Positions 35,021-55,852 of a stretch of 61,426 bases of DNA are shown in pieces. The position numbers were made by a program, and so were the translations under genes. Source of the DNA: a virus (lineage: Duplodnaviria > Caudoviricetes); IMG/VR virus record IMGVR_UViG_3300030116_002629, positions 1 to 61,426 of that record. One strand, given 5' to 3'. The first letter of the stretch is position 1, and each line of letters begins with the position of its first letter. The notes below the pieces were generated by a model. The model was not told where the DNA came from. It made no database searches and saw only the letters and a program-made list of their open reading frames with translations.

Positions 35021-35039
35021 ATTATCCTTCCTATTATTC

Positions 35040-35076
35040 ATAATAGAGAAAAGAAATATAGGGACCGTTAGGTCCC
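35040..35076 (-). promoter_or_regulatory. GTTA-hairpin promoter-like element A
   Basis: GGGACC-GTTA-GGTCCC at 35061-35076; TATTAT on the minus strand at 35045-35040. Confidence 0.65.
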
Positions 35077-35084
35077 GATAAGAC

Positions 35085-35219
35085 TTAACCTACTAATTCT
35101 TTATTTAGTTTTGTAATACCTCTTTCAACAGGTACAAACTCTACTTCTCCTTGTTCATTTCGAACAATAAAGAAAGGTTCGCTACCGATTCCAGCGTATT
35201 CTATTCCAACTATCTTCAT
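35085..35219 (-). CDS. Small hypothetical protein, 44 aa
   Basis: MKIVGIEYAGIGSEPFFIVRNEQGEVEFVPVERGITKLNKELVG; GAGGT upstream. Confidence 0.5.
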   Translation of the reverse strand: MKIVGIEYAGIGSEPFFIVRNEQGEVEFVPVERGITKLNKELVG

Positions 35220-35246
35220 GTCTTGACATACCTCTATCCATATGTA

Positions 35247-36302
35247 CTATACATCTTCTAATTTTACTAGATATTCTGCAGTTACGCCAGTACCATCCTT
35301 ACAAAATAGTAACCATTGGCATGGCCTACCCATACTAGCTAGTTGTTCTAGTGCAAATGTATTGTAACTTTCAGTACTTCCATTAACCCATAACCTTATA
35401 TCATTAAGATACATTGTTGTAGGTGTATGAAAGTGACCTGCAATAGCGTTGTCAAAGTCTGGCATAAGACCATTAGCTGCTAATGTTTTCCAACCTTGTA
35501 GCTTTTTACCAAAGCCATACCATGGAAATCCACTAAAACCTCTCACATTGTCACCGTGCCAGAGTAAAAACTTACATTCTTTACCTAAATCAGCTATATC
35601 GAACCAATGGTTGTCACCTGTACTGTCAGGTATTGTGAATGTAATACGCTTTTCTTCTCTAAATATCATCTTCATGATGTTACCTAGCATCCTATCAGCG
35701 TTAGAATCTGGATGATAATCTTTACGACTTCGGCCTCCTAAATGGCCATGATTACCTATAACCCAATGAACATCTACTTCATTAAAGTTAGCAAGTAATA
35801 TGTCAAAGAACTGTGTCATTATTCTTGGGCCATCAACTGTTACTTGTTTGTACAAGCTGCTGTCAATCAAGTGTGATTGGCCTGGAAATATTAACTCACC
35901 TTCTACTATGTCTCCTACTGCAAACACTGCAACTTTATTAACAGGATGAGATTGTCTTTGGACATTAGTAATGTCAACTATCTTATTTGCATAAGCTATT
36001 ACTCTTTCTTCAGCTATCTCTGAATTATATTCAGGTGTTACTTTAGCTAATTGAATGTCACTAAGTACTGCTATTGCAGTTTCTTCATCCTTAGTTTTCT
36101 TTAAGTTGCGTGGTTTAGGTATAGAAGGTTTGTCCCATGTTCGAAGATTGGCTGATACTGCCTCATAAACTGCATCAACCATATCTTCTTTCTTCTTTTT
36201 GGCCTTCTCAAGCTGTTTCATAATATTTAAATTATCTTTTTTTAAATCTTGAACAACTTTAGACTCAACTTCTGCCATTAATCTTTCAACATCTTTAGGC
36301 AT
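35247..36302 (-). CDS. Calcineurin-like metallophosphoesterase (putative nuclease) with an N-terminal coiled coil
   Basis: LSDIQ, GDIVEG, GNHG, WHGD and GHFH motifs. Confidence 0.85.
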   Translation of the reverse strand: MPKDVERLMAEVESKVVQDLKKDNLNIMKQLEKAKKKKEDMVDAVYEAVSANLRTWDKPSIPKPRNLKKTKDEETAIAVLSDIQLAKVTPEYNSEIAEERVIAYANKIVDITNVQRQSHPVNKVAVFAVGDIVEGELIFPGQSHLIDSSLYKQVTVDGPRIMTQFFDILLANFNEVDVHWVIGNHGHLGGRSRKDYHPDSNADRMLGNIMKMIFREEKRITFTIPDSTGDNHWFDIADLGKECKFLLWHGDNVRGFSGFPWYGFGKKLQGWKTLAANGLMPDFDNAIAGHFHTPTTMYLNDIRLWVNGSTESYNTFALEQLASMGRPCQWLLFCKDGTGVTAEYLVKLEDV

Positions 36303-36540
36303 TAGATTCTTTCTCCAATCTTTGTAAGTATCTTCTCATTGCTGATTCAGATATTACAATACCAAAGTTATCTTCAAGTAATCTTGATACAACATAAGGT
36401 CTCATCTTTATCTTATCTTTTATTACCCTGTTTTTTAAAGCAATCCAAAAAGGTTCTGCTTCTGGTGTAATTTTACCTTCAACATAGTTACCTTTTTTTC
36501 CATGCTCTGCTTCATCTAGCATTTCATTTATATCAGTCAT
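36295..36540 (-). CDS. Small HTH-like protein, probably leaderless
   Basis: VVSRLLEDNFGIVISESAMRRYL; TGCTATAGT at 36556-36548, 7 nt before the ATG. Confidence 0.6.
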   Translation of the reverse strand: MTDINEMLDEAEHGKKGNYVEGKITPEAEPFWIALKNRVIKDKIKMRPYVVSRLLEDNFGIVISESAMRRYLQRLEKESNA

Positions 36541-36594
36541 ACTGACTACTATAGCAGGATATAGATATAAGTAGATGATTTAAGAAGAAAGTAG

Positions 36595-36667
36595 TGGAGG
36601 TGGCCGGAATCGAACCGGCATTAGTCTAATACAGTTGCCTGTATTAGCTACTAACCTGGACACCCCC
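36595..36667 (-). ncRNA. Non-canonical tRNA-Ala-like RNA (tmRNA TLD-like) with no D-stem and no anticodon loop
   Basis: GGGGGUG/CACCUCC-A acceptor stem with G3.U70 and A73; T-arm GCCGG-UUCGAUU-CCGGC; central 14-bp helix closed by GCAA; CCA not encoded. Confidence 0.8.
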
Positions 36668-36751
36668 AACTGATGGAATACCGTGCTTAAGGTCGGAAAG
36701 GAGTACAACCCACTGTTGCCAGTTGCACGGTACTCCTTAATTTCCTTCCTT

Positions 36752-38263
36752 TTATCCTAGCTGATTTAATGCTAAAGCAAACTTCTTTACTTCATCAATA
36801 TTAGCTAGTCTGGTTATTCCTGAACGCTTGCATATTTCTATACAATCTTTCAATAAGTTTTCACTATTCTGATTATGTAAACCAAAGACATACATATCAC
36901 TCACCCATATTCTTTTAGGTGGTTGTTTAGATAACCATTTCAAAGCAGGGCCATCAACTAAGTTACCTCCGCCTGTATATTTATTTAAGTATTCTTGATT
37001 TACTCTTTTACCATTCTGTCCTATTATTCTTAACGAACCTGTATCCCATGCACCTGCATAGTTATCGTTATACATAGCAATAGTAACAGCTGGTAGTAAT
37101 TGCATTATATCTAGGATATCTTGTCCTGAAAAATGCATTGAACCTGATGCGTCAATTAATATTGTTCCACCATATACTCTTTGTTTTTGTTTGAATACTT
37201 TTTTATCCACACACCAACGATTCATATACTTAGGATTAACACCATAGTCCATTGGCCTATATTCTCTACCACCTTTTATTTTTGATTGCATATTCACATC
37301 AAGATATGGTTTAAATATCTCCATCTTTCCCCACTTACCCATATCATTTGGTTGTGGTTTGTAGTTCATATTACCATCATTGGTAGCATTAAATATCTGC
37401 TCTTTGTTACGCTGCATTAACTCATCTAATGTTTCCATTCCTTCCATATCGCCTTCACCATCTTGTTCAGTAGATGAACTGTTAGCTTTACGATTGGCAT
37501 TCATGGCTTGTTCTTTAGCTTGTTTAGCTTTTCTAGCTTTTTCAAGAACTTCATGTTCTTTAGGCTTGTCATTGAACTCATCCATTAATTTGTTGAGTAT
37601 TATTGCAGCTTGTCTAGTTTTATTGTATTTAGTTGGTTTTCTATAATAACCTCTACTATAAGTTATCTTTTGATATAACTTATTAGCTTGTCTCATAGCC
37701 CATTGCAATTGACCTAATCTTAATTTAGTCATTTGGTTTGGACTACCTGGTTCTATATTATGAACAGATTCCATTGCTTGTTTAATAGATTCAAATTCTG
37801 GTCCAGCAACACTGTGACTATAATAACTGCCACCTTGTCCTGGTCTCATGTTCATTAATATCCATGCAGTGATATCAAATACTGAACCGTTATACAATAT
37901 GTCTAAAGTTTTTTCTTCAAACTTTGGTTGACATATAGTCCATTCATCTAACCATAAATCTTTAACAGATAAATTATAATTAACACGAACTTCTTCGCAT
38001 ATTTCTATACAAATTTCACTTTCATAATCTTTTAATTTACCTACAGTTTTAGGACTCCACTTAGCATGGCCAAGTTCATGTCTTCTAATCATTTTGTTAT
38101 GGTCAGCACCACATAAATCACATACATCACCATTTGTAGGGACATACATTTCTTTAGACAATACAGATGTTCTAGGCTGTTTTTCGTCCTCAAATATTTT
38201 CCAAGGTCCCTCTCCAGAAGCTATTTCTGGAAAGGGTATCTTGTTATTCTTCTTCTTGTACAT
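36752..38263 (-). CDS. HEXXH metallopeptidase-like plus vWA domain protein (partner of the MoxR ATPase)
   Basis: RRHELGH; ILIDASGSM MIDAS motif; GGGN..D and IWVSD vWA motifs. Confidence 0.75.
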   Translation of the reverse strand: MYKKKNNKIPFPEIASGEGPWKIFEDEKQPRTSVLSKEMYVPTNGDVCDLCGADHNKMIRRHELGHAKWSPKTVGKLKDYESEICIEICEEVRVNYNLSVKDLWLDEWTICQPKFEEKTLDILYNGSVFDITAWILMNMRPGQGGSYYSHSVAGPEFESIKQAMESVHNIEPGSPNQMTKLRLGQLQWAMRQANKLYQKITYSRGYYRKPTKYNKTRQAAIILNKLMDEFNDKPKEHEVLEKARKAKQAKEQAMNANRKANSSSTEQDGEGDMEGMETLDELMQRNKEQIFNATNDGNMNYKPQPNDMGKWGKMEIFKPYLDVNMQSKIKGGREYRPMDYGVNPKYMNRWCVDKKVFKQKQRVYGGTILIDASGSMHFSGQDILDIMQLLPAVTIAMYNDNYAGAWDTGSLRIIGQNGKRVNQEYLNKYTGGGNLVDGPALKWLSKQPPKRIWVSDMYVFGLHNQNSENLLKDCIEICKRSGITRLANIDEVKKFALALNQLG

Positions 38264-39017
38264 CTTTTAATTCATTGTCATGTACATTAACATCGGATAG
38301 TTTAATAGCGTCAAGTAACTCTTCACCTCTATCACCGAATATCAATTCAGCTGCCATTTTCATTGGCGTACCTTTTTGTTGAAGTTCAAAGTATTCTCTC
38401 CAACTTCTAACTGATATTCTTTCTTCCATATCCTCTGATAATGAAGTATCTTGTATCACTTGATGCCATGTTTTAGGAAACATCCTTAATGCACTAGGAT
38501 GAATCTCATCAACATGTATTTTAACTGGGAACCTATCTTTAAGTGCCATTGGTAGGCTTTCAGGTAGGCTGTTAGTTGTAGCAATAACATTAAAACCTGA
38601 TTTAGGCCTTACTGTTTCTTTGTCGTCATTATTTAATGTCAACTGTGCTATATCTTTATCATCAAGGATAGCATGTAAGAATGTCATGGCGTCTGGACTA
38701 GCGTGGTCAATCTCATTGACTACCAATCTTCCACCATTTCTCCATGCTTGAATTGCTATACCATCATGCCATTCAAATCCACCGTCAGAGTTTGGCTTGT
38801 AAAAGCCTTCTAAGTTTGCACTAGCAGTATCCTCTGTCATTGTGATTTGATATACATTTGGGTCGCCATTCATATTCAATCCAACCTTATTGGTTGCAGC
38901 AGCATATGTTTTACCAGTCCCTGGTGGACCGTACAACAATATTCTATCGGAGTTTCCGATTGCTGATTTTACTTTATCCCAACAAGTAACTACTTTCGTA
39001 GTCTCTTTCTCACTCAT
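38244..39017 (-). CDS. MoxR/CbbQ/CobS-type AAA+ ATPase
   Basis: GPPGTGKT Walker A; LVVNEID Walker B; IATTN; ALKDRF. Confidence 0.9.
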   Translation of the reverse strand: MSEKETTKVVTCWDKVKSAIGNSDRILLYGPPGTGKTYAAATNKVGLNMNGDPNVYQITMTEDTASANLEGFYKPNSDGGFEWHDGIAIQAWRNGGRLVVNEIDHASPDAMTFLHAILDDKDIAQLTLNNDDKETVRPKSGFNVIATTNSLPESLPMALKDRFPVKIHVDEIHPSALRMFPKTWHQVIQDTSLSEDMEERISVRSWREYFELQQKGTPMKMAAELIFGDRGEELLDAIKLSDVNVHDNELKDVQEEE

Positions 39018-39029
39018 TAGTATCCTTTC

Positions 39030-39353
39030 TTAGAATGGTTTTTCTTCCATTCCATCTATTTTTACAAAACGACAATATATTTCTATAAAGCCGTGTTCTG
39101 GGTTTCTTCGTTGCCTTACTTCAAACAAACCTTTACCTCTAAGGTGTCTGATATTTGTTTGGTTCATGCTTTCGATATTTTGTTTCACACCTGATATCCA
39201 ATTATCAGATTCAGCTATTACATACCATTCATTAGGTGTAGATAATAGTGTTTCTACTTTTTCATCAGTCAATATCGTAGGTGATTTACCTTTACGATTT
39301 GCGTGTGCAACTGGTGGCTTTTTTCTTTCTAACTTACTATTCTGAATCGCCAT
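39030..39353 (-). CDS. Hypothetical protein
   Basis: ORF in the leftward operon. Confidence 0.55.
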   Translation of the reverse strand: MAIQNSKLERKKPPVAHANRKGKSPTILTDEKVETLLSTPNEWYVIAESDNWISGVKQNIESMNQTNIRHLRGKGLFEVRQRRNPEHGFIEIYCRFVKIDGMEEKPF

Positions 39354-39894
39354 CTTTATCCTCTGTCATATCTTTTAGCCATTGTTCTGTTATGTTACCT
39401 GTATTTTCACTATGTTCCATAACTTCAGCAATTGATTTGTCAATCATAGCTTCTTCATTGGCCTCTAATACGCACTGAATAGTAGTTGGTTCCGTAAAGA
39501 AAAACCTATTGAATAAACCTCTATTTCCCATATCATTTAAACACAACATCTGTTCTTCTTGTGTTGCTTTAGGGTCTATAGTTTTAATCCAACCTGTCAT
39601 CATAGCTGCTTTACGGTAAGCGTCTAATCTCATCGCAGCATCTATTGCTTCTTTTGGTCCAACTGCTGGAACTTTATATCTAGTAGCTAGTTCTGTATGT
39701 TCATCAAAGTTAACAAACTTATCACTCCATAAGTATCCATGTTCATCTTCTCTTTGATAAACAATTATAACTACATACATATGAACTTTTTGTTCACCGA
39801 ATGCTACAACATCCCTGTCACTTAACATATTCATTCCTATAAATGAGTCATCATTACAATCATTACAATCGCAACTATCATTTTCTTCAGTCAT
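39337..39894 (-). CDS. Hypothetical protein
   Basis: AAAGGA RBS; overlaps both neighbours. Confidence 0.55.
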   Translation of the reverse strand: MTEENDSCDCNDCNDDSFIGMNMLSDRDVVAFGEQKVHMYVVIIVYQREDEHGYLWSDKFVNFDEHTELATRYKVPAVGPKEAIDAAMRLDAYRKAAMMTGWIKTIDPKATQEEQMLCLNDMGNRGLFNRFFFTEPTTIQCVLEANEEAMIDKSIAEVMEHSENTGNITEQWLKDMTEDKDGDSE

Positions 39895-40195
39895 ATATCA
39901 TTCCTTTCTCTACTTCCCATGTCTCAAAGTTAGCGTGACATCTATCACACCACCATAATTCTGAATGTTCATCGTCAAAATTTAATTCTCCTTCACATAA
40001 TGAACAATAAAATCCTGGTTGTATCTCATTATCAGTTACTAGTTGTAGCATATCTTCAATAATACGCTGCTCAATAAGCAGCTGTTTCTTGTTATACTTC
40101 CACCATCTAATAATGTCATAATTGAAATCACGCAGTCTTATATAGACTTGTTTGTAGAATCTCTTATAATCATTAAATGTCATCCTCATTGTCAA
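39887..40195 (-). CDS. Hypothetical protein with a C-terminal zinc ribbon
   Basis: CSLC..CDRC. Confidence 0.55.
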   Translation of the reverse strand: MTMRMTFNDYKRFYKQVYIRLRDFNYDIIRWWKYNKKQLLIEQRIIEDMLQLVTDNEIQPGFYCSLCEGELNFDDEHSELWWCDRCHANFETWEVEKGMIYD

Positions 40196-40388
40196 CCTTA
40201 ATCTCTACTAAGTCAATCTGATGACTCTCGAATGTAAACAATTTATTGTTATCAGCTAGTTTTACAAGGTTATCAACTTGTTCATCTATCTGGTCAACAG
40301 TTGTTTCTTCTGGGAATGTAAATGTAACCACTACATCTTTGTCCCAGGTTTTCTTTGCTGGGTTTTCATAAACATATGGTTCACTCAT
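40173..40388 (-). CDS. Hypothetical protein
   Basis: ATGA-coupled ORF. Confidence 0.55.
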   Translation of the reverse strand: MSEPYVYENPAKKTWDKDVVVTFTFPEETTVDQIDEQVDNLVKLADNNKLFTFESHQIDLVEIKVDNEDDI

Positions 40389-40588
40389 TGTTCTTCCCTT
40401 CTTGCGACATAATCAAGCTCTTTTACAATGCTTAACTTTAATCTCGCATGTTTAATTTGATTGTGTATTTTTATTTCTTCAACAATACCTTCGCTACTAA
40501 ACTGTTCAAGGTCATTATTAATATCTTTAATAATTTTAATCAATGAACCTTTGGGTAACGATTCTAATTGGTCGTCTAAAACATCCAT
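40385..40588 (-). CDS. Hypothetical protein
   Basis: AAAGGAG RBS. Confidence 0.55.
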   Translation of the reverse strand: MDVLDDQLESLPKGSLIKIIKDINNDLEQFSSEGIVEEIKIHNQIKHARLKLSIVKELDYVARREEQ

Positions 40589-40612
40589 ACATCTCCTTTC
40601 TCTATCATTATA

Positions 40613-40766
40613 TAGATAGCTTGTAGCGTACAGTTTCAGTCATTATGCAAACAGGGGAGTCACACACTCTTACTTCCATACACTACAAGCTACCTACAAC
40701 AATTACTTCCGGGTATACTGTTTATCAAGAGACCTTGAAAAACTCTTGATATTCAATATGTTGTAG
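40613..40766 (-). other. Two long intergenic stem-loops (possible RNase III sites or structured RNA)
   Basis: 40613-40630 pairs with 40679-40696 (G-U pairs work on the minus strand); 40694-40701 with 40759-40766; 40723-40731 with 40743-40751. Confidence 0.5.
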
Positions 40767-40783
40767 AATAGCTTTACTAACTG

Positions 40784-41383
40784 CTAGTTAGCACTTGTTT
40801 CTTCTGTAGGGTCTATTACTAAATTAGCTACTCTGTCAAACATCATAGCATGTTCAGCATATATCTGTTTAGTTTCTTCTTCAGATAATGGGTATTTACT
40901 TTGTACTGGTTCTCTTTCAAATTCGTGCAAAGCAGAATTACTTATCTTTAAATTATATTTTCTAGCAATATCGTTTAATAATTTAAATGGTTCTCCCCAA
41001 GCTGAGTCAAATGTCAAAACAATTTTATTTTCATCCATAAATAATAACTCTGTTTGACAGTCTCCCCATTTGGTTCCCCAGTTTTTGTATTCCCAGTCAA
41101 CTGGTTTATATGTACCATATTTGTCAACTAATTCTTGCTTTGTAATGTCAAGCATTGGCCTAGCACCGTCATCATCCTCAAACCATACATCACATCTAAC
41201 ATCATCAAATGTTCTAGCTCCTTGATGTATAGTTTTGAATATTTTAGGTCTGGGCATACAATTAGTTAAATGATATGCTATTTCACCGTCAGTTGGTTCT
41301 ATATCAGTGATTTTTAGCATAAACTTTTCTAAATCATCACCTTTACCTGTGATTACTATATTGTTATTTGTCCAATTCGGCAT
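40784..41383 (-). CDS. Api92/DUF1281 (YubB ferredoxin-like) family protein
   Basis: MPNWTNN..DWEYKNWGTKWG..LTFDSAWGEP. Confidence 0.75.
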   Translation of the reverse strand: MPNWTNNNIVITGKGDDLEKFMLKITDIEPTDGEIAYHLTNCMPRPKIFKTIHQGARTFDDVRCDVWFEDDDGARPMLDITKQELVDKYGTYKPVDWEYKNWGTKWGDCQTELLFMDENKIVLTFDSAWGEPFKLLNDIARKYNLKISNSALHEFEREPVQSKYPLSEEETKQIYAEHAMMFDRVANLVIDPTEETSAN

Positions 41384-41669
41384 TATCATCTCCCATCATT
41401 TTCTTAGCTTCTTCAATTAATTCATTAATACGAATCATTTCTAATTTTACTTCGTCAGGCACATCTTTATTTTCTTGAGTGAATTTAGTATATTCTTCTC
41501 TAAAATCATCTCTTGATAATACTGTTGCCATAAATTCATTTCTAAATTTATGTGATTTCTTGCCTAAATGCTCAACAATAGCAATTTGAACTGTAGTTAG
41601 TATGTCTATTTGTCTAGTAGCAGTTTCAACGAACTTTTCTAGCTCTTTTAACTCTTTTGGTTTAGCCAT
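41364..41669 (-). CDS. Hypothetical helical protein
   Basis: AAAGGAG RBS. Confidence 0.55.
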   Translation of the reverse strand: MAKPKELKELEKFVETATRQIDILTTVQIAIVEHLGKKSHKFRNEFMATVLSRDDFREEYTKFTQENKDVPDEVKLEMIRINELIEEAKKMMGDDNAELDK

Positions 41670-41805
41670 CTCTCTCCTTTACAACAACTTTTTTGATTGT
41701 ATCTTTACCTTCACCATATGCTTTCATATGGATTTGTGCTTCGTTATAGGAGTAACCTCGTCTAAGGCACTCCCATAACTGCATAATAATTTCTTCCTGA
41801 GACAT
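41662..41805 (-). CDS. Small hypothetical protein, 47 aa
   Basis: MSQEEIIMQLWECLRRGYSYNEAQIHMKAYGEGKDTIKKVVVKERDG; coupled to the upstream stop. Confidence 0.5.
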   Translation of the reverse strand: MSQEEIIMQLWECLRRGYSYNEAQIHMKAYGEGKDTIKKVVVKERDG

Positions 41806-42218
41806 TATTCTTCCTCGTTAATTAAAGTAGCAAGAAAGTCTTTTTGTCCCTTTGCCATATGAAAATCAATATAATCTTTCCATAAAGTATCGAATACATT
41901 TTTTAAGTCTCCGTTACCAATATCATTCTCTGATTGTCCTTGATTTGTATTTAATTTACCAAATCTATCCTTTGGATAAAGTTCTAAATCAAAGAAGTCA
42001 TTGAAATTATGTATAACTTTCCAATGTAATGTTCTATTGTTTATAGTAATGTCAAATTCTATTCCCCCGTGAAATTCTTGAAGTCTTTCGCCTGTTGGAT
42101 TGTTAGTTAGAATTACAACATCTTCTATAAGTTCTTCATACATACCTTCGGGCATTAAATCAATAATACTACCGGCACTATATGATGTAACCATATTTTT
42201 CATCTTTTCCTTTCTCAT
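41805..42218 (-). CDS. Hypothetical protein
   Basis: ORF in the leftward operon; start may be a few codons further in. Confidence 0.55.
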   Translation of the reverse strand: MRKEKMKNMVTSYSAGSIIDLMPEGMYEELIEDVVILTNNPTGERLQEFHGGIEFDITINNRTLHWKVIHNFNDFFDLELYPKDRFGKLNTNQGQSENDIGNGDLKNVFDTLWKDYIDFHMAKGQKDFLATLINEEE

Positions 42219-42253
42219 CTCGCATTTGAACTACTGCGTGACAATTACTACTG

Positions 42254-42281
42254 AAATAAAGGGGGATTTTACTCCCCCTCT
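42254..42281 (-). terminator. Intrinsic terminator after ssb
   Basis: Minus strand AGAGGGGGA-GTAAAA-TCCCCCTTT-ATTT. Confidence 0.6.
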
Positions 42282-42294
42282 ATTAACTAATTTT

Positions 42295-42747
42295 TTATTC
42301 TTGTTCTTCACTAGCATTAGTTTGAACAACTGGATTATCATATCCAAATGTTTCATTTTTAACTGGTGCTTCCCAAATATCTGTAACAACCATTTCGGTC
42401 TTATAGTGCATAACACCTTTATCATCCTCATAGTTATTATTCTGTAATTTTCCAGTAACACCAACTCTTATAAAAGGTTTATTAGTTACTGTACTAACTG
42501 GTGCATTTTGAAGAGTATTAACTATTTTACTAATTAATTTATCTCCATAAGCAACTGCTAGTAGGTTAGCTTGTTTATTTCCTCCATCTAATACGAACTT
42601 AATCCCATTAGCATAAGAGTTTCCTGTTTTGGCTGAACTACCAACTCGTGGCATTCCATCCTCTGTTATTGTTGTCATTAAACCGGTATAATTAATAGTA
42701 TTAATTGTACCTAGGTCTCCTGCAAATTGTTCGAGTCTATCTGTCAT
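42295..42747 (-). CDS. ssb: Single-stranded DNA-binding protein (OB fold)
   Basis: AVAYG..VGVTGKLQNNNYEDDKGVMHYKTEMVVTDI; acidic tail; start MTDRLE after AAAGGAG. Confidence 0.8.
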   Translation of the reverse strand: MTDRLEQFAGDLGTINTINYTGLMTTITEDGMPRVGSSAKTGNSYANGIKFVLDGGNKQANLLAVAYGDKLISKIVNTLQNAPVSTVTNKPFIRVGVTGKLQNNNYEDDKGVMHYKTEMVVTDIWEAPVKNETFGYDNPVVQTNASEEQE

Positions 42748-42784
42748 TATTACTTCATCTCCTTTCAAACAATATACAATATTC

Positions 42785-42822
42785 AAAATAGAAAAAAGAT
42801 AAAAGGGGACCGTTAGGTCCCC
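42785..42822 (-). promoter_or_regulatory. GTTA-hairpin promoter-like element B
   Basis: GGGGACC-GTTA-GGTCCCC at 42805-42822; TATTTT at 42790-42785; directly upstream of ssb. Confidence 0.65.
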
Positions 42823-42828
42823 ATTCTA

Positions 42829-42933
42829 TCATTTATTTTTCAACACATCACTTAGTGTTAACCACCAAGGTTTATTTCTGTGCCATTTATAATATGTTAT
42901 CCAACTAATTATTATCCATAGTTTCTTTAACAT
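42829..42933 (-). CDS. Small Trp-rich peptide, 34 aa
   Basis: MLKKLWIIISWITYYKWHRNKPWWLTLSDVLKNK; fills the gap. Confidence 0.4.
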   Translation of the reverse strand: MLKKLWIIISWITYYKWHRNKPWWLTLSDVLKNK

Positions 42934-42934
42934 A

Positions 42935-43078
42935 TTACTTATTGCCTTTCCATTTTGTATTGAACTTCCAATTAACATTCTCGTTAAGTGGTTGCTCAAA
43001 GCTTATATCCCAACAATCATTACATAACATACCGTCAAGTAATAAATGTTTGGTTTTTGTTTTACAATTAGGACACAT
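42935..43078 (-). CDS. Small zinc-ribbon protein, 47 aa
   Basis: MCPNC...LCNDC. Confidence 0.5.
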   Translation of the reverse strand: MCPNCKTKTKHLLLDGMLCNDCWDISFEQPLNENVNWKFNTKWKGNK

Positions 43079-43274
43079 TATCGTCACTAATTTCTTGGTG
43101 ATAAGAATAAACTATATCTTCTACAATATGTTTACTTCTATCACTTATTTCTTTTAATCCCTTAGCCTCTAATTCTTCAATTTCTTGGGCTGGGAATATA
43201 TTAATTTTTCTTAACAAATTCATACTTTTTGTAAGTGTTAAGACTTCATTGCGTATTTGTTCAAATTCATTCAT
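43068..43274 (-). CDS. Hypothetical protein
   Basis: AAAGGAG RBS. Confidence 0.6.
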   Translation of the reverse strand: MNEFEQIRNEVLTLTKSMNLLRKINIFPAQEIEELEAKGLKEISDRSKHIVEDIVYSYHQEISDDNVS

Positions 43275-43297
43275 CTGAATTTAACTCCTTTCAATAC

Positions 43298-43334
43298 ATA
43301 ATAGAAAGAAGAAGTAAAGGGACCGTTAGGTCCC
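43298..43334 (-). promoter_or_regulatory. GTTA-hairpin promoter-like element C
   Basis: GGGACC-GTTA-GGTCCC at 43319-43334; TATTAT at 43303-43298. Confidence 0.65.
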
Positions 43335-43375
43335 GTTATTCATCTCTCTTTTCTTGTGCGAAAGCTACTAAGTTT

Positions 43376-43419
43376 AAAAAAATACTAAGGGGGGAAAAAG
43401 GGCTATCCCCCCAAAGTAT
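43376..43419 (-). terminator. Intrinsic terminator after the first leftward gene
   Basis: GGGGGGA..TCCCCCC stem followed by a T run on the minus strand. Confidence 0.55.
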
Positions 43420-43426
43420 CAGCTCC

Positions 43427-43714
43427 CTAGTATCTTTCGTAGGTGTCTTTGAAAGCTTTATGGCTAACTTTAAACCATTCTACAAACTCAACAAAGATTG
43501 TATCCGAATAATCATCAGAAGCTGGAACATACTTAAAAGTTCGCTTATCATCTAAGCCATTTAAGTAATCTGTAGCGTCCTCTAAGTTCTCAAACTTAGC
43601 ACGCATTTCTAATAGTAATGTGGAATCAATAGGTTTAGAACTAACCAATTTAGCATTAGTGCCAACTGGAAGCTCTTGGCCTGATATCTCACAAGTATAA
43701 GTTTTCGTAGTCAT
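43427..43714 (-). CDS. Hypothetical protein, first gene of the leftward arm
   Basis: Start MTTKTY after AAAGGAG. Confidence 0.6.
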   Translation of the reverse strand: MTTKTYTCEISGQELPVGTNAKLVSSKPIDSTLLLEMRAKFENLEDATDYLNGLDDKRTFKYVPASDDYSDTIFVEFVEWFKVSHKAFKDTYERY

Positions 43715-43744
43715 TTTAACTCCTTTTTTAACTAACATTAACTT

Positions 43745-43782
43745 GTAATAGAGAGAAGAAGTAAAGAATGCGTTAGCATTCT
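43745..43782 (-). promoter_or_regulatory. GTTA-hairpin promoter-like element D
   Basis: AGAATGC-GTTA-GCATTCT at 43765-43782; same flank and spacing as A-C with a different stem sequence. Confidence 0.65.
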
Positions 43783-43849
43783 AAAGTCCTACTATCTCTT
43801 ATTTAATTTAGAATGTATATGAACAAAAGGGAACATATTAGTCTAAATC

Positions 43850-43946
43850 AAGTTAGAAAGAGTGTAGAAAGTAAGCGTTAGCTTACATACTGTTAAGTAG
43901 CGTTAGCAGAAGTCGTTAGACCTGCAGATGTTAATCTGGCGTTAGC
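43850..43946. repeat. Element E and an array of six GTTA-loop mini-hairpins
   Basis: Stem pairs GTAAGC/GCTTAC, TACT/AGTA, GC/GC, GTC/GAC, CAGAT/ATCTG and GC/GC, each enclosing GTTA, at 43871-43946. Confidence 0.75.
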
Positions 43947-44187
43947 TGTTTTTATATGTATGTGATAAAAAATATGATGGTAATTCTGTATTACTGTATA
44001 GGGGGAGAGCCTGTTTAGGCATGAGCGGGCCTTATATAGTAGTGTTTTAATGATTCAGCTATCTTTTTAATCCTTGAGTACTAGGTTTGTGTTTCTACTT
44101 TATCGTCCTACCGATTCCTAGCTTTCTGCCTCCCGATGGCACCTTTACTTGTAATTAATTTCCTTCTGAATGTTTGTAATTGTTTTT

Positions 44188-44202
44188 AATATAGCATATA
44201 AT
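44188..44202. promoter_or_regulatory. Back-to-back divergent -10 boxes
   Basis: TATAAT (+) at 44197-44202 before terL; TGcTATATT (-) at 44196-44188. Confidence 0.45.
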
Positions 44203-44238
44203 AATATCTAAGCAAGTATCTAAAAAGGATTAGTTTAA

Positions 44239-46155
44239 ATGTCTAACAAGCCCCATAAAGTTTGTGAAGGAACTGGGTGTAAAAAATGGTTAAAAGGAAA
44301 GCAAAGACGCTTTTGTTCTACTACTTGTAATAAAAGAACCTGGGCTCAAGAGAAAGCATCAGGTAAAGAAAACATTACCAAAGCTATTAATAGAGAATTA
44401 AAGTCAGATACTGGTGATTATGCTTCTGTAAGGAGGGGTACTTACTATTCAGAGTTTAAAGCAACCTACGCAGACGACTTAGCAGGGGGCCTAATCACAA
44501 CACTAGAGGTAGCAGAGGCCATTGGGACCAGCTCCGCTACTGTTTCACGCATGCTCGCTGCCTACAAGATAGATAAACAGAATGAAATAAATGCCGAAGG
44601 TTGGGAATTAGATGAAACCCAGACTGAAATTTTAAAAAATTTTTCTAGCTTTCGCTCAAAGTACTTTGCTACTGAAACCGGGGAAAAATTCGAGACAGCA
44701 GACTTTCATGAAAACTGGATATTAAACATAGAAGACTCTATAGAGAACGGTAAAGAGTTATTAATACTGTCACCCCCAAGACATGGAAAGACAGAACTAC
44801 TTATACACTTTGCTATATACCAAATAATGAAAAATCCTAACATAAGAATCATGTGGGTTGGAGGTAACGAGGACATTGCAAAGAATGCATTAAGTTCTGT
44901 ATTAGAACACCTTGATGATAATGAAAGATTGATAGAAGACTTTTGTCCACCAGGTACAAACTTTAAACCTGATAACCGTTCAGGAAAGAACTGGTCACAG
45001 AATCAATTTACTGTAGGTACTAGAACAGTACCAGGTATTAAATCACCAACTATGGTTGCTATAGGTAAGGGTGGAAAGATTCTTTCTCGTGACTGTGACT
45101 TGATTATTGCAGACGACATTGAAGACCACCAGACCACTATGCAACCTGGTGCAAGAGAGAACACTAGACAATGGTGGACCACTACTCTTTCATCAAGAAA
45201 AGAGGAACACACTGCTGTTGTAGTTATTGGTTCAAGGCAACACTCTGATGATTTATACCATCACTTGCTAGGCAATGAAAGTTTTACAACAATAGTTGAA
45301 ACAGCACATGATATGGCCTGTACTATTCCTGACCACTTTGTAGAAGAACATACTGACTGTATGTTATGGCCAGGTAAAAGAACATTCAAATGGTTAATGT
45401 CTCGTATGCAAGCTGCAGAGACAACAGGTGGTAGGAAAATTTATGAAATGGTTTATTACAATCAGGCCTATGTAGAAGGTACACAAATCTTTACTATGGA
45501 TATGATTGATAGTTGTATGCGTAATGATTTAATTATTGGGCAGGTACCAGGCAATTTACATTTAGTTGCCGGACTTGACCCTGCTTCTTCTGGATATCAA
45601 GCAGCTGTACTATGGGGTATAAACTCCTATAGAGGCGAGCTATTTCTTATTGATATAGAGAATAGACAAGGTGGGGGAGTGAAACATGCTTTGCAAATTA
45701 TGTCTGATTGGTATAGCAGGTATGATTTACAACATTGGATTATTGAAGAAAATGGTTTTCAAACTGCTATTAGACAGGATGATAAAATAAAAGAATTTGT
45801 TTTAAGGTCAGGTATAATGATGCAAGGACATGTTACTGGAAAAAATAAACATGACCCTATGTATGGTGTAGGTTCTATGGCTGGTTTATTTGAAAATCAA
45901 AAAATCCACCTACCAGTTGGAAATTCTGAAAGTATTGCTAAAGTTAATGCTTATAAACAACAATTGTTATACTTTGACGGGAAACCAGTGAATCAAAGAA
46001 ACAAAGAAAAGACTGATATAGTCATGGCTGGTTGGTTTCCAATGAAAGTATTCAGAAGAATGAACAAAGAGCAACTTGCTACTATGGGATTAGATTATAA
46101 TGCAAGTTACACAAACTTTGAAGGAAGCGACTATAATGAGGCACCATGGGGATAG
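44239..46155 (+). CDS. terL: Terminase large subunit with a fused N-terminal zinc finger and HTH
   Basis: PPRHGKT Walker A; LIIADD Walker B; GLDPA nuclease motif; N-terminal CEGTGC..CSTTC and LEVAEAIGTSSATVSRML. Confidence 0.9.
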   Translation: MSNKPHKVCEGTGCKKWLKGKQRRFCSTTCNKRTWAQEKASGKENITKAINRELKSDTGDYASVRRGTYYSEFKATYADDLAGGLITTLEVAEAIGTSSATVSRMLAAYKIDKQNEINAEGWELDETQTEILKNFSSFRSKYFATETGEKFETADFHENWILNIEDSIENGKELLILSPPRHGKTELLIHFAIYQIMKNPNIRIMWVGGNEDIAKNALSSVLEHLDDNERLIEDFCPPGTNFKPDNRSGKNWSQNQFTVGTRTVPGIKSPTMVAIGKGGKILSRDCDLIIADDIEDHQTTMQPGARENTRQWWTTTLSSRKEEHTAVVVIGSRQHSDDLYHHLLGNESFTTIVETAHDMACTIPDHFVEEHTDCMLWPGKRTFKWLMSRMQAAETTGGRKIYEMVYYNQAYVEGTQIFTMDMIDSCMRNDLIIGQVPGNLHLVAGLDPASSGYQAAVLWGINSYRGELFLIDIENRQGGGVKHALQIMSDWYSRYDLQHWIIEENGFQTAIRQDDKIKEFVLRSGIMMQGHVTGKNKHDPMYGVGSMAGLFENQKIHLPVGNSESIAKVNAYKQQLLYFDGKPVNQRNKEKTDIVMAGWFPMKVFRRMNKEQLATMGLDYNASYTNFEGSDYNEAPWG

Positions 46156-47942: not shown

Positions 47943-48100
47943 TGGAGAATTTAGATAATTTGTTTTGGGACATTATTGATAATGAATTTGGTGAAAATCC
48001 ATATGACCCAATGATGCCTCCTATGCAAATAATAAGACCATTACCTAATATAATAATAATGATACAAGGAGAGGAAGGTTATTATGGTACGGAAGAGTAA
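47942..48100 (+). CDS. Small Pro-rich hypothetical protein, 52 aa (allele B)
   Basis: MENLDNLFWDIIDNEFGENPYDPMMPP...; homologue of 243-410. Confidence 0.75.
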   Translation: MENLDNLFWDIIDNEFGENPYDPMMPPMQIIRPLPNIIIMIQGEEGYYGTEE

Positions 48101-48494
48101 TAAAGGTGGGTATAGAAAACCTACTCCTAATAGAAAAAACGCAGTCAGTGGACCAGGAGCTTTAAGTCAAAGAACTGACGGAACTCAGCCAATTATGCGT
48201 GGACAAGATATGGGTTACGGTGAAAGTACAGAATATCAAAATTTACAAAGGAGTGCTCCTATGGGAGATTCTGGTGGAGCTAATATGGGGTTACCTCAAC
48301 AAGCTGCTCCGGGGCCAGATGTTTTTGCACCTACAGAAATACCAGGAGAACCAATAACAGCAGGAGTACCTGTCGGAGAAGGAATGGGGCCACAACGACA
48401 AATAGCTGAAGATGTAGATATATTATTATCTGCAATGTATTCAGTTAACCCTCATCCTGTAATAGCCGATTTAATAAATAACAGAAGTCAATAA
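48084..48494 (+). CDS. Gly/Pro/Gln-rich hypothetical protein (allele B)
   Basis: Homologue of 394-804. Confidence 0.75.
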   Translation: MVRKSNKGGYRKPTPNRKNAVSGPGALSQRTDGTQPIMRGQDMGYGESTEYQNLQRSAPMGDSGGANMGLPQQAAPGPDVFAPTEIPGEPITAGVPVGEGMGPQRQIAEDVDILLSAMYSVNPHPVIADLINNRSQ

Positions 48495-51400
48495 ATGTGG
48501 ATTGACCCAATACAAGAAGCTGAATTTCATAAAGTTGTTGCTATTGACAAACAGAGATTCTTAACAGCACAAGAATATGTTAAAGCAAACCCTATAGTAG
48601 CAGATTTAACAATTGCTCACACAAAAGCAAATCCTATTTTATCAAAAAGTATTGTTACAACATTAGCTATGATGAATGTTCCAGTTGAAGACCCTTCAGT
48701 TCAAATGTTAGCAGATGAAGCTCAAGCAAACTGGGTTATGCAAGAAACTGAAAAGTGGAATGAGATTAATGAAAAATATAGAGATGATAAAATAACAGAT
48801 GATATGCATCTTAGTATTATTGATATTCTTACTGGTGGATATGCACCTGGAGGTAGAACTCCTAAAGAAGTAGGAGGTTGGTCACCAGCTATATGGCTTA
48901 TTGGAACATTAGACGCAATTAGAGAAACTTGGAATAAATGGAATCCATTACCAACTTCTGATGTATTACAATTTGGTGGTGGAGGTGTTCCTTATAGAGC
49001 ACAAGGTCGTATATGGAGATATTATCAAGACCTTAATAGATATGATGAATTATTAGAAAAAGGATATACTCCTAAACAAGCTCAAGCTAATATAGCTTCG
49101 CTAGTAAATATATCTGAAGTACCTAACTTAGGTAAAGATATGGGAGCTGGAGAATTTGCACAGAATTTAGATTTCTTAGAAGAAGCAATTAAATTTGCAG
49201 GAGAAAATTATATTTGGGCAGCAGCTAAAAAAGTATTTAGAGGCGAAGCTGTAAATATGGATAGAAGTAAAAAATTCTTTTTTGAATCTGTACATCATGA
49301 TAAAGACCCTAAATATCATGAATTATTACAAAAGATGAATGGAGATGAAGAAAAAGCTAAACAATTATATTATTTACAAATTGGTACTCCAATTAAAAAA
49401 CTAGATGGAAATGGTGAAATAAATTATTTAAGTATTGAAAATCCAAATAAAATTCAAATCTTTGCTGATAGAAGAACTAACTACAATGATATGAATGTTA
49501 CTGAATATGCTGCAAGAGAATTAATGAAAGATGCTCAGTTAACAGATTATTCTTGGGGAAGATATGAAACTGGACAGTTATTTACACCTGGAACTACATC
49601 ATACAAAGTAATGTCTGGTTTGTTAGATTTTGCATCTGCTTTACCAGCAGAATATGCAACAGGTGGTTTATTAAATTTATATAAAATAAAAGCTGCTTCT
49701 AGAAGTGTTGATGTAGTTAATCAAGCTAAAAAGATTAGAAAAGATACAGGAGATATCAGATGGCTTGATACTAAATTGGAAGCCAAAGAATTAACTGAAT
49801 TAATTAATACAGCTAAAGATAGAACTACTGCAGCAGGAAAACAAGCTTTTGATAAATTAACTAAGAAAGAAAAAGCTTTTATATTAGATGAAGCTGAAGC
49901 AGCAAACTGGGCTATCAATATGGCTAAAGCTGATAAATACAATGGAGTAAATCCAATATTACAAAAAGTAATGAAAGCTGATAAAACCATGAAAAGAAAA
50001 CATGGAATGTTTAATGGAAGATTACAAGGTGTATTTTCTTCAACAGCTGAAAAATTAGTAAATACTGCTGAAGCAAGAATATTAATTAAACATTTTGCAA
50101 ATTCTAGGTCAGCTGATTTAATGTCAGACCCTACATTAAGAAATTGGATTAACAATGATGATTATTGGGAATGGGTAGGAAGACAAACTGATGAAGGAGT
50201 TATTTCAGATTCATTATTGCAAATGATGCGAGATGGTTTTTCTATGCAAAAATTATCACGAAAAGGTGCAGTCGTATCTGATGAATTAATATCAATACCA
50301 GGTTTACCTAAAGGTTTTTCATATTTAACAAACAAAGCAGTGCGTTCAGTAACAGGAAATCAAGATTTTGCAATGAGAAGTCTTGGAGGTGTATTAGGAA
50401 AAAATATTAAAACTCCATATCAAATTACAAGAGGAACTTTAAGATTATTAACACACAGAGCTCAAAGAAAAGATGCTATAAAAACTGCTACAAAAAAAGT
50501 AGAAGGATTAGTAGATGGCCAAGCAGACAGTTGGGATATATTAAAACAAATATACAAAGCTGAAATAAATCCAAACACAGTACCATTTAAAAAATATTTA
50601 GGTTTTAGTGCTAACTTTAGTGATGGTGTATCTCCAAGAATGAAAGCTTTAGTAGCTGAATTACCTGGAAGTTCTATGAACTTAAGTAATCCTAAAGTTG
50701 CAGCTAGGCAATTAGTTAATCATATGAAAGTTAATCAATATACTCCTGATGAATTTGAAACAACTTACAGATTATTTCAAACAGCAATGGAGGGTGGATA
50801 TCAAAAACAAGTTCAATTTACTATGGATTTAATGGAGAATGATTATAACAGAATCAGAAGAACTCTTGAAGAAAAGAAAGCTGCAGGTTTAATAAATGAT
50901 GCACAAGCTAGAGGCCATGAAGTTATTGCTGCTCATATTAAAAAAGTAACAGCTGAATGGAATAAAAAAGAAAGAGCTTACTGGAAAAGTAATGGAGTAG
51001 ATACTAATGGTGTATCAAACAATATACATGCACCAGGTGGAAACACTCCTGAGCAAACATTTAAAATGCTTATTGATGGAGAAGAAATAGAAATTGTTGT
51101 ACCTCACGCACATGTGTTAGCAGAAATGAGTGAAAACTTTATGCCGTTTATCAATCAAGATATGGTAGATAGAGTTAATAGCAAATTGTTTTATCATGTA
51201 GATGTAGATGATGTACAAGCTTGGGAAGTATCAGGTGCTGCTAAACAAAATCTTAAAAACTTCTTTAATAACTGGAAATCTGATGGGTTACAGTTTGCTA
51301 AAAAAGAATACCCAGGTTGGATACCTACAAACAATACAATGGATGATGCAATGACTAAGTTGTTAGATTTCTATACAAGAAAAGTTTTTAAACCAATTGT

Positions 51401-54302: not shown

Positions 54303-55852
54303 TGGCTGAAAAGAAAAGTTTAGCACAAAGAATTGGTGAATGGTGGTATAACTACACTCTAGCTCAAGGCGAAGCAGCAATGATACAATCAGAAGCTCAA
54401 TTAGCTACAGGTGAAGCACTTTTAGGAGTTCTTGAACAAATTGAAATAGATGGAGATATTACTGATGAAGAAAGAGAAGTTATAAGTGAACTTCATAAAT
54501 ATGAATCAGGTGCAGTACTCGGTGAAGCTTTAAAAATATTTTTTACAAATTTTAGTAACGATTTTTCAAAAGGTTACAATAGTGCAGAATGGGATAATTT
54601 ATCTCCAGATGAAAAAGATGCAGTTAGAGAAACTCAATCAAAAGAATCATTTATAAATAAACCAACAGTAGCAGAAGAAGTAGTAGATACAGGAGCATCT
54701 GCTTATGAAATTCAATCTCAAATGGGTGCAGCTTTTGATGCAGATGGAACTATACAAGATGCTATTGGAGCACCAGAGGTAACAAATCAAGATATATTAA
54801 AGCGTACTCCTATTGGTGGATTAGGTGGACAACAATTAGAAATGTACCTTAATGCAGTAGCAGAAGGTAATTTAACTCCAGAACAAGCATACTTACAAAC
54901 TACTGGTACTAACTTAGCTGCATTTGTTACTGATGATGATGGAAAAATTCAATTTGAAGAAGTAACTAAACAAGATGGAACTAAAGTATTTGTACCTGTT
55001 CCAGTAACAGTACAACCTGAATCTTTATTTATGGGTGGTTTTATAAATCATATTAGAAGACAAAATCCAGCAGCTATTGAAGAATTAAAACAATTCTTAG
55101 TATTAAACGGTATAGCTGAAGCAGATGATTTTGATGATAGTGGTGAAATGGACCCAGCATTAGAAGGAATTATTCAAACATTAATGGCTGATGCTAATTA
55201 CAAATATGCACATGTAACTTATGGTAGTCACGAATGGAATGAGTTAGTTAATTCAGTACCTAGAAACTTTGGTTGGGTTCTTGATAGTGATATGGATAGA
55301 GAGAAAGCATCGTGGGCCTTACTTGGTAGAGCTATTATAGATTTCAAAGATGACAGGGCTTTTATTGAAAAAGCGGATATAAAAGCAAAAGAAAAAGAAT
55401 ATGAAGCAAATATAGATATTCCAGGTGTTGGTGAAATGTCATATAGAATAGATAACTTCTTTTCAGATGCATTAGGAAGACCTCCAACTGCAGAAGAAAG
55501 AAATAGATTTCTTAATGAATGGAATACAGGATATGATACTTATGTTCAAAAGAATATCGCTGCATATAAAGCAGCTACTTACGGTGCTGATATGGAGAGA
55601 TATTTAATTGAAAATGGTGAGTCAATTACTGCTGAAGAAGAACAAGCTTTAAAAGATGACATACAAGCTGGTGGTGATGTATTAGCTGGTATTGTTGGTG
55701 AAAGAGAAGTTGAAACAGATTTCGTTACTGATGAAGATATATTTTATGATACATATTGGAATATGACTCAATATACTGATAAAGTAAAAGCTGGTAAAGA
55801 TAAAAGAGAACATCAAGCAAATCTTATGAAATTAATAACAGGTAAAATATAA
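54302..55852 (+). CDS. Putative internal virion protein, 516 aa (allele B)
   Basis: Distant homologue of 6620-8236. Confidence 0.55.
   Translation: MAEKKSLAQRIGEWWYNYTLAQGEAAMIQSEAQLATGEALLGVLEQIEIDGDITDEEREVISELHKYESGAVLGEALKIFFTNFSNDFSKGYNSAEWDNLSPDEKDAVRETQSKESFINKPTVAEEVVDTGASAYEIQSQMGAAFDADGTIQDAIGAPEVTNQDILKRTPIGGLGGQQLEMYLNAVAEGNLTPEQAYLQTTGTNLAAFVTDDDGKIQFEEVTKQDGTKVFVPVPVTVQPESLFMGGFINHIRRQNPAAIEELKQFLVLNGIAEADDFDDSGEMDPALEGIIQTLMADANYKYAHVTYGSHEWNELVNSVPRNFGWVLDSDMDREKASWALLGRAIIDFKDDRAFIEKADIKAKEKEYEANIDIPGVGEMSYRIDNFFSDALGRPPTAEERNRFLNEWNTGYDTYVQKNIAAYKAATYGADMERYLIENGESITAEEEQALKDDIQAGGDVLAGIVGEREVETDFVTDEDIFYDTYWNMTQYTDKVKAGKDKREHQANLMKLITGKI

Follow-up and report, generated by a model that had tools for sequence, protein, structure and literature searches.

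A covarying hairpin at fixed distance from a TCT/TAnnnT box ahead of early genes in an uncultured phage: a candidate hairpin-dependent promoter

Promoters that are read from a hairpin in DNA have so far been a speciality of N4-like phages. In the part of PMC4496689 that describes them, the N4 early promoters carry a hairpin on the template strand, with both conserved and free stem bases, a loop containing a sheared G:A pair, and a purine ruler. Stem-loops also accompany early promoters in the T4-type phages RB49 and phi1, as promoter-early stem-loop (PeSL) cassettes; the section of PMC2839356 that deals with them gives sigma70-like early promoters and stem-loops that can overlap the -35 region, promoter and terminator activity both having been demonstrated. 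A looser parallel is found in the SAS/ESAS repeats of Cluster K mycobacteriophages, which a portion of PMC3203893 describes as oriented and located ahead of a subset of non-structural genes. Here we examine the whole of IMG/VR virus record IMGVR_UViG_3300030116_002629 (61,426 bases, hereafter the window), in which five copies of an oriented two-part element, a short hairpin followed by a TCT/TAnnnT box, accompany the leftward early genes. These elements are real, conserved and structure-defined. With a probability of roughly 0.42, and from sequence comparison, we read them as hairpin-dependent promoters with a lineage-specific reader, N4-like in logic and lying outside the N4 family.

Five elements of one design

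On the plus strand, the pattern TAGA-N18-CGTTAG matches at 35044, 42789, 43302, 43749 and 43854, and it has no match on the minus strand. The pattern read backwards as a control gave 0 matches, the chance expectation was 0.10 +/- 0.30, and five matches were reached in 0 of 100 shuffles. A covariance model trained on 26 elements from the window and its relatives finds exactly these five sites at 49-57 bits; its next match scores 15.5 bits. The positions given in an original prediction, which had been made from the letters of this DNA alone, were recovered, and in 5/5 cases 23 nt separate the start of TAGA from the G of the GTTA loop, as it had observed. Its remark that the stems differ yet always pair also holds: all are perfectly paired, with GGGACC in elements A and C, GGGGACC in B, AGAATGC in D and GTAAGC in E. 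Likewise, the minus-strand hexamers read as it had listed them, and four of the elements sit just ahead of a Shine-Dalgarno (SD) sequence and an ATG. The elements, with parts given in the leftward sense, and a neighbouring cluster of smaller hairpins are listed here.

Element E, 43846..43889, minus strand: hairpin 43886-43871 (GTAAGC/GCTTAC), sense loop TAAC 43880-43877 (GTTA on the plus strand), TCT 43857-43855, hexamer TAACTT 43855-43850; 49.2 bits, RNA hairpin -6.9 kcal/mol; no gene immediately downstream, element D following about 105 nt further
Element D, 43741..43784, minus strand: hairpin 43782-43765 (AGAATGC/GCATTCT), loop 43775-43772, hexamer TATTAC 43750-43745; 52 bits, RNA hairpin -7.8 kcal/mol; then an SD and the ATG at 43714
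Element C, 43294..43337, minus strand: hairpin 43334-43319 (GGGACC/GGTCCC), loop 43328-43325, hexamer TATTAT 43303-43298; 52 bits; ahead of an SD and the ATG at 43274, with a separate canonical terminator some 60 nt upstream
Element B, 42781..42824, minus strand: hairpin 42822-42805 (GGGGACC/GGTCCCC), loop 42815-42812, hexamer TATTTT 42790-42785; 57.3 bits, RNA hairpin -15.1 kcal/mol; the SSB-like gene is next
Element A, 35036..35079, minus strand: hairpin 35076-35061 (GGGACC/GGTCCC), loop 35070-35067, hexamer TATTAT 35045-35040; 52.9 bits; then an SD and the ATG at 35041 of a Rad52/SSAP-like annealase
Orphan mini-hairpin cluster, 43897..43949, minus strand: the loop of the element without the TCT box

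The hexanucleotide CGTTAG occurs 11 times in the window against 6.6 expected, and nine of the copies fall in the plus-strand interval 35066-43945. Of these, the one at 35699 lacks a stem (1 pair) and is hence not counted as an element, and those at 43901, 43914 and 43940 belong to the mini-hairpins. On the plus strand the latter read GC-GTTA-GC (loops at 43902 and 43941), GTC-GTTA-GAC (43915) and CAGAT-GTTA-ATCTG (43925-43938), with stems of 2-3 bp at the CGTTAG copies and of 5 bp in the last. The position of the cluster is kept in hairpin-bearing relatives, and the cluster is absent from the hairpin-free clade (L096). Just downstream of element E, a stretch ending in TGTTCC (43820-43845, minus strand) is invariant in 8/8 aligned relatives (columns 405-416 of alignment A1); in the window it opens a 14-codon open reading frame (ORF) without an SD.

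The likeness to the N4 promoters, on which the original prediction had drawn, is considerable as far as the cited part of that source describes them. Both have a template hairpin with a stem of 5-7 bp in N4 and 6-7 bp here, inner bases that are free if paired, a C-G-closed loop, a purine run between hairpin and start, and several copies in the same orientation at the start of the early region. However, the N4 loop has 3 nt with a central purine, whereas the loop here has 4 nt (G-N-T-A) in 37/37 distinct elements, the set used for counting columns and stem cells, with the C-G closing pair and the G...A ends present. Transcription in N4 starts about 11 nt from the loop centre and needs supercoiling and SSB, whereas the box here lies 22 nt from the loop. 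The present locus also differs in its TAnnnT hexamer, in its upstream host-type promoter candidate, and in that our searches found no homologue of the N4 virion RNA polymerase; the phage itself, at about 44 kb, is unrelated to Schitoviridae.

With the PeSL cassettes, as far as they are set out in the section cited, the elements share a repeated intergenic stem-loop and an early promoter followed by SD and ATG, a possible overlap with the -35 region, and a position flanking variable genes. In that account PeSLs have canonical -35 and -10 boxes, a variable stem-loop position, G-T pairs and no fixed loop. The present elements, by contrast, lack a -35 box as well as G-T pairs on the sense strand, keep a rigid spacing with an invariant loop and closing pair, and are accompanied by orphan mini-hairpins. 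About half of the SAS/ESAS repeats have an upstream inverted repeat whose consensus differs by sub-lineage, according to the portion cited; the ESAS arms are conserved over 17 bp with a variable spacer between them, and SAS includes the SD, whereas here short arms without sequence conservation enclose a fixed loop, and the SD comes only after the downstream box. A likeness to Rho-independent terminators also exists, namely a GC-containing hairpin and a T-rich stretch, and four of the five elements pass a simple scan. They differ from such terminators in the fixed loop, in the box fixed 15 nt past the stem, and in the weak stems or U tracts of many copies.

Conservation, covariation and the folded strand

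A motif search in related phages, as the original prediction had suggested, finds the same element in 14 of 57 related loci, with 38 model hits that are all oriented with the early genes. Five whole records contain 19 hits, 2-5 per genome, on one strand only and with the early genes in 19/19 cases; for the two records with a completeness of at least 91%, the covariance model found no elements in the structural arms. In the window, too, the elements point with the leftward genes and sit just ahead of them. When anchored on the loop and read on the sense strand, 26 elements align gap-free over 44 columns. The invariant columns are G4, C9, T10, A11, C13, C19 and T33-C34-T35, and G14, T31 and T40 reach at least 90%. 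Each of the four inner stem pairs has undergone 9-15 double changes with zero unpaired cells, the closing C-G pair is found in 25/26 elements and the outer G-C pair in 26/26. The covariation score is 0.777, compared with 0.178 in shuffles and at most 0.176 with slid partners.

A plain intergenic alignment, the site ahead of the annealase gene and a contig pair 92% identical served as checks free of selection by pairing. In the intergenic alignment, orthologous stems of element E read GTAAGC, GTAGAC, GAATGC and GAGTAC, each with its own complement. The pre-annealase site is occupied in six genomes by five different stems, all fully paired, among them GGGACC (twice), GGCTGC, GGTATCC and GGACTAC; the GGTATCC stem is carried at this site by a public-run contig with a loose end at 35085. 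The contig pair, 92% identical over 8.5 kb, differs by two compensatory double changes in the E stem. Because orthologous stems differ yet stay paired, with covariation, we conclude that the hairpin of the element is selected as a structure. A palindromic protein site would not hold uncontacted positions complementary, and the centre TANC is not palindromic.

The distance between loop and TCT shows no indel in 36 of the 37 distinct elements despite very different spacers, whose sense strand is pyrimidine-rich, G-poor and T-rich and whose template strand is purine-rich. In the same set, T33 is present in 36 elements, C34 and T35 in all 37, A36 in 25 and T40 in 35. From the first loop base to TCT the distance is 22 nt, and TCT opens a TAnnnT hexamer. 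Numbering the hexamer -12 to -7 would place the loop at about -37 to -34, in line with the earlier placement of the hairpin near -35 of a -10-like sequence. A spacing that stays fixed over diverse spacers fits one reader that touches both parts. What had been called a structure-defined family is borne out in the relatives, where the stems covary and the loop, closing pair and spacing are fixed.

Beyond the hairpin-bearing loci, a sister clade without hairpins (large terminase 82% identical) has a similar pyrimidine-rich TTATGGAT box ahead of its SDs. A more distant clade (72-74%) has a single hairpin, CTTTACC-TTAC-GGTAAAG, with the template loop GTAA and without a U tract; its TAGTAT keeps the register in 12 loci and stands one base nearer in another 2, and since these loci are near-identical orthologues they count as one or two observations. 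In one locus of that clade (L074, 5500-5720, minus strand) the motif ACTATATATAG/A occurs three times upstream of early genes, and the hairpin precedes one copy only. A pattern scan of the whole collection that made no demand on pairing gave at least 119 matches; among the matches listed, six have all four inner pairs complementary, and all six are stems already seen in this phage family. A permissive hairpin-plus-TCT script returned 1677 matches that were mostly spurious, and it was replaced by the covariance model. In the literature searched, supplementary files aside, we found no description of this element.

As originally stated, the GTTA strand is the template strand for the leftward genes. 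Template-strand loops read GTTA, GCTA or GATA (GTAA in the distant clade), and all are closed by a C-G pair. The d(cGNNAg) loops invoked in the original prediction do correspond to a named class of unusually stable DNA tetraloops, appearing in the title of Nakano et al. 2002 as referenced in PMC10085684 and in a passage of that paper. Among 222 core stem cells in the 37 elements, 211 are Watson-Crick pairs, 0 are sense G.T, 6 are C.A or A.C and 5 are other mismatches. The six C.A/A.C cells equal G.T on the template strand, and this evidence is weak because they trace to three independent events. In an adjacent structured region (below), G.U occurs in 45 of 621 cells, or in 22 of 598 when an invariant pair is left out. 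The sense loop UANC is not known to belong to any class of stable RNA loops. Stems as short as the 2-3 bp of the mini-hairpins would be plausible only with an extra-stable loop or a bound protein. The evidence leans, weakly but consistently, towards template DNA as the folded strand.

The promoter reading and its rivals

The 3' box of the element is probably a promoter, whether the hairpin takes part in its recognition or only accompanies it as one half of a cassette. By script, an SD with a start codon was found for 21 of 33 elements. The SD is never less than 7 nt after the hexamer and starts 7-13 nt after it in 12 of the 21; such room would be required by a start site about 7 nt past the hexamer. 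In the window, four of the five hexamers fit TAnnnT and that of element D ends in C. A promoter scan listed a -35 hexamer (TTGACA-like, 16-18 bp upstream) for none of the five, and the loop and 3' arm occupy that place. The formation of a -35 box by cruciform extrusion was rejected as an explanation, as the upstream stem flanks show no TTGACA-like motif. Many actinobacterial promoters have a TAnnnT -10 element alone. A related 54-kb contig is placed in a genome bin labelled Actinomycetota, which is weak evidence on the host; WhiB, considered as a host hint, is absent.

In the reading that we favour, the elements would serve the leftward early and DNA-metabolism genes as promoters. The first part of the element is its hairpin of 6-7 bp, in which nothing but the loop, the closing C-G pair and the outer G-C pair is constant. 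Read on the sense strand the loop is T-A-N-C, and on the template strand G-N-T-A; for the four inner pairs complementarity is enough. The second part, the TCT/TAnnnT box, is held at a rigid 22 nt from the first loop base, a geometry that puts the loop at about -35/-36, where the elements have no -35 box. We hypothesize that folding takes place in DNA, the template strand forming a stable d(C-GNNA-G) tetraloop that a lineage-specific and probably phage-encoded factor would recognise, thereby placing or activating RNA polymerase on the -10-like box. This polymerase would most likely be that of the host, no phage polymerase being detectable, and transcription would start about 7 nt past the hexamer, near 35033, 42778, 43291, 43738 and 43843.

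The third base of the sense loop, its sole variable position, offers a view of the putative reader. It is A in 9/9 loops of the window (five elements and four mini-hairpins) and in most relatives, and G or T in every loop, mini-hairpins included, of the L013/L014/L015 lineage; in the L015 lineage the loops of the mini-hairpins have all changed together to GCTA or GATA. Gene conversion is a poor explanation for this lineage-wide change, because the stems of the same elements have not been made uniform, and a reader with changed specificity is a better one. One candidate was found.

39887..40195, minus strand: zinc-ribbon protein of 102 amino acids (CxxC...WWCxxC) with an invariant WWC motif

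Its homologues comprise 8 distinct forms, all from hairpin-bearing loci, and none was found in the other loci searched; two members of the family match the TFIIB zinc ribbon (E = 3.4e-5). The hairpin clade is probably one branch, so that this co-occurrence amounts to a single event, and the protein is a lead as reader candidate, nothing more. In L025 and L028 an element begins at the stop codon of the zinc-ribbon gene. The first early protein was rejected as the reader: it is 41% identical between loop types but unconserved even where genomes share a loop. Relatives that are close yet differ in the loop (92% identical over 8.5 kb) show too many differences to single out a gene. A further version of the proposal, to which we would give less credence and which we think unlikely, holds that this abundant, uncultured marine lineage has a second, independent class of DNA-hairpin promoter in which an extruded template d(C-GNTA-G) tetraloop replaces the -35 box. 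A small phage adaptor, with the zinc-ribbon protein as the candidate, would couple the loop to the host polymerase at the -10-like box exactly 22 nt away, and reader and loop would co-evolve from GTTA to GCTA/GATA.

Upstream of element E and between the elements lie features that bear on which transcripts would reach them.

44188..44215, minus strand: sigma70-type promoter candidate with -35 TTGCTT (44215-44210), TG (44196-44195), -10 TATATT (44193-44188) and a 16-nt spacer
44174-44179 / 44197-44202, plus strand: rightward promoter candidate before the large terminase gene, TTGTAA / TATAAT with a 17-nt spacer, conserved and overlapping the leftward candidate
44053..44171, minus strand: structured non-coding region, 27 predicted pairs of which 20 show compensatory changes in 23 relatives
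43391..43412, minus strand: canonical intrinsic-terminator-like hairpin after the gene at 43427-43714, with a G6/C6 stem and a T run, -15.9 kcal/mol
42262..42278, minus strand: canonical terminator-like hairpin after the SSB-like gene, outside the element family, -18.7 kcal/mol

The leftward candidate, a putative promoter of the extended -10 kind, has invariant columns in the relatives. By its G.U pairs, the structured region is read in the leftward sense; it is kept across the whole phage family, and one of its pairs is G.U in 23/23 sequences. Rfam gave 0 matches at the gathering score in the whole window, and two chance-level matches (E 0.34 and 0.41) between 43300 and 44300. The region could be a leader, a riboswitch-like element or a small RNA; the terminase gene beside it has no recognised small subunit adjoining. 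With a promoter candidate and a structured region upstream of E, upstream transcripts probably cross E and D. That no leftward gene precedes D and E for them to terminate, as originally argued, accordingly holds for protein genes alone, and it fails as a case against termination.

Several observations count against hairpin-dependent promoters. PHROGs and Pfam scans of 58 ORFs detected no RNA polymerase, sigma factor or known activator. A36, which would be the key -11 base for a sigma70-type factor, is found in just 25 of the 37 elements, the hexamer is less conserved than TCT, and one copy at the annealase site, in two related records (L100 and L103), reads TCTTTTGC. Part of the element set was chosen by pairing, and the covariance model rewards pairing; the C.A events that favour the template strand are few, three only. 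Four public RNA runs share a small part of the sequence words (0.05-0.12) and consist of contigs of relatives, 88-99% alike, that carry no transcript starts or stops; none of these contigs lies over 42408-43992, and they bear neither way on transcription. Read-through transcription could reach every element. In a simple and permissive terminator scan, A, B, C and D are terminator-like on the minus strand; A and B begin 5-8 nt past stop codons with GC-rich stems (-11.9 and -15.1 kcal/mol), and B has a good T run. Finally, the PeSL precedent shows that a stem-loop overlapping the -35 of an early promoter can be a terminator. The early-transcription interpretation as first put forward has thus survived in part. 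The structure-defined family, the orientation, the place before genes and the -35 location support it, whereas no phage RNA polymerase or sigma factor was found and a PeSL-like explanation is a live rival.

In that explanation, which we consider possible but doubtful, the elements would be terminator-plus-promoter cassettes: an RNA terminator or attenuator hairpin followed by TCT/TAnnnT as a -10-only host promoter, the hairpin lying outside promoter recognition and the repeated cassettes serving as recombination points that shuffle small early genes. The terminator-like scores of A to D, the position of A and B directly after stop codons, the T-rich and G-poor sense spacer and the likely transcription from upstream are all as such a cassette would have them. 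The gene content between the elements also varies among close relatives while the elements stay alignable, which is what cassette shuffling at the elements would produce; the small genes between D and B differ in this way (window 42829-43274, L015 3146-3722, L022 4830-5480), and several of the variable genes encode CxxC zinc-ribbon proteins. However, the spacing is invariant in 36/37 elements and sense G.T is found in 0/222 stem cells, whereas PeSLs are variable and contain G-T pairs. Termination needs no invariant loop, closing pair or outer pair, and no box fixed 15 nt past the stem; mini-hairpins with 2-3 bp stems would be unable to terminate, and many relatives have poor U tracts, e.g., TCATTAATC and ATCACATTC. 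Moreover, E and D are weak (-6.9 and -7.8 kcal/mol), whereas the canonical terminators of this genome reach -15.9 and -18.7 kcal/mol. One of these lies just upstream of C, whose counterpart in L014 likewise follows a canonical terminator. The leftward gene block ends without an element, another signal standing there. It is possible that A and B also stop upstream transcripts, and such a role may exist beside the hairpin-dependent promoter that we prefer.

Other explanations place the function of the hairpin in RNA, in replication or in an N4-type enzyme. It seems improbable that a phage or host protein binds C-UANC-G hairpins in the transcript for antitermination, RNA processing or stability, or translation control. 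Multiple hairpins with one loop in a transcribed leader, one hairpin ahead of each of several genes, a position 7-40 nt before SDs and a lineage-wide change of loop identity that calls for a specific reader would all suit such a protein. Yet UANC is not a known stable RNA loop class and its complement is a stable DNA class, the stems lack G.U although the adjacent structured region has it, C.A mismatches are tolerated on the sense strand, E has no downstream gene, and in RNA a constant distance to a -10-like box would serve no obvious purpose. Somewhat further down the scale, we hold it quite improbable that the elements are signals in single-stranded DNA, i.e., primase or replication-start sites or targets of structure-specific enzymes, with the mini-hairpin cluster beside the terminase gene being origin-like. 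The full elements accompany gene starts, always leaving 7 nt or more up to the SD, and in six genomes they precede the same annealase gene, which a replication signal would have no need to do; scans of the ORFs with PHROGs and Pfam detected no primase, polymerase, HUH or Rep enzyme. This is to be set against stable DNA-type loops that are all on one strand, a conserved site that stands on this same strand at a constant distance 5' of the hairpin, orphan hairpins that cluster in a divergent intergenic region, and neighbouring genes that are SSB-like, annealase-like and exonuclease-like. A true N4-type system, in which a virion RNA polymerase is injected as part of a large unannotated virion protein (1938, 1935 or 1518 amino acids), would share the logic of the N4 promoters and make use of very large virion proteins that have no assigned family; we judge it very improbable. 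At the level of sequence these proteins match no RNA polymerase family or motif, the nearest named cluster of the 1935-residue protein is LPD38 (a weak match), the loop has 4 nt rather than 3 with a loop-to-box distance twice that of N4, and the -10-like hexamer with an upstream host-type promoter candidate suggests the host polymerase.

Targeted searches point the same way with respect to the enzyme. PF04542 gave no match over six frames; PF00940 gave none either, and as its control was silent in every control genome this result is uninformative. A PDB sequence search with the large proteins returned no RNA polymerase match, and regular expressions for T7-type and two-barrel polymerase motifs did not match. 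In the protein atlas, the 1935-residue virion protein falls in unnamed clusters only, with LPD38 (a polyvalent-protein domain) as the nearest named one, weakly. Since no polymerase was detected, and given the -10-like hexamer and the host-type promoter candidate upstream, a host polymerase with an additional factor is favoured over an injected enzyme.

If hairpin-dependent promoters do exist here, they would be a second case of promoters read from a DNA hairpin, with another geometry and apparently no phage polymerase, and DNA secondary structure would become a more general promoter signal. Compensatory, loop and spacing variants that occur naturally in the lineage could then serve to study how the signal is read, and compact, orthogonal, structure-defined control elements may be possible. 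The element would also provide a searchable signature for early transcription units in widespread marine phages that have no cultured member. If the cassette explanation is right instead, the PeSL idea would be extended to an unrelated phage group in which cassettes flank shuffled early genes.

Genome context

The window combines rightward structural genes with a leftward block of early and DNA-metabolism genes.

15718-16842, rightward: major head protein gene
43714 to 31880, leftward: early/DNA-metabolism gene block, including SSB-like, Rad52/SSAP-like annealase, Mre11/SbcD-like exonuclease and CobS/AAA_5-like ATPase genes
44239-46155, rightward: large terminase gene

No near-identical cultured phage was found, and the top protein matches of the large terminase are below 28% identity. 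Its relatives in IMG/VR (n=276) are every one uncultured metagenome contigs, and the longest relatives measure 43-45 kb. Two paralogous structural modules are present in the record, at 379-15700 and 48084-61426, with identical gene order; their proteins of 1938 and 1935 amino acids are 54% identical. On the related 54-kb contig, about 44 kb separate two copies of the terminase. Rather than a single genome, the 61-kb record is probably two related genomes joined by wrap-around assembly.

Within the leftward block, the AAA_5/CobS-like ATPase adjoins a protein of 503 amino acids that belongs to a PHROG family without a known role (36752-39017, minus strand), and the two resemble the CobS/CobT-like pairs of marine phages.

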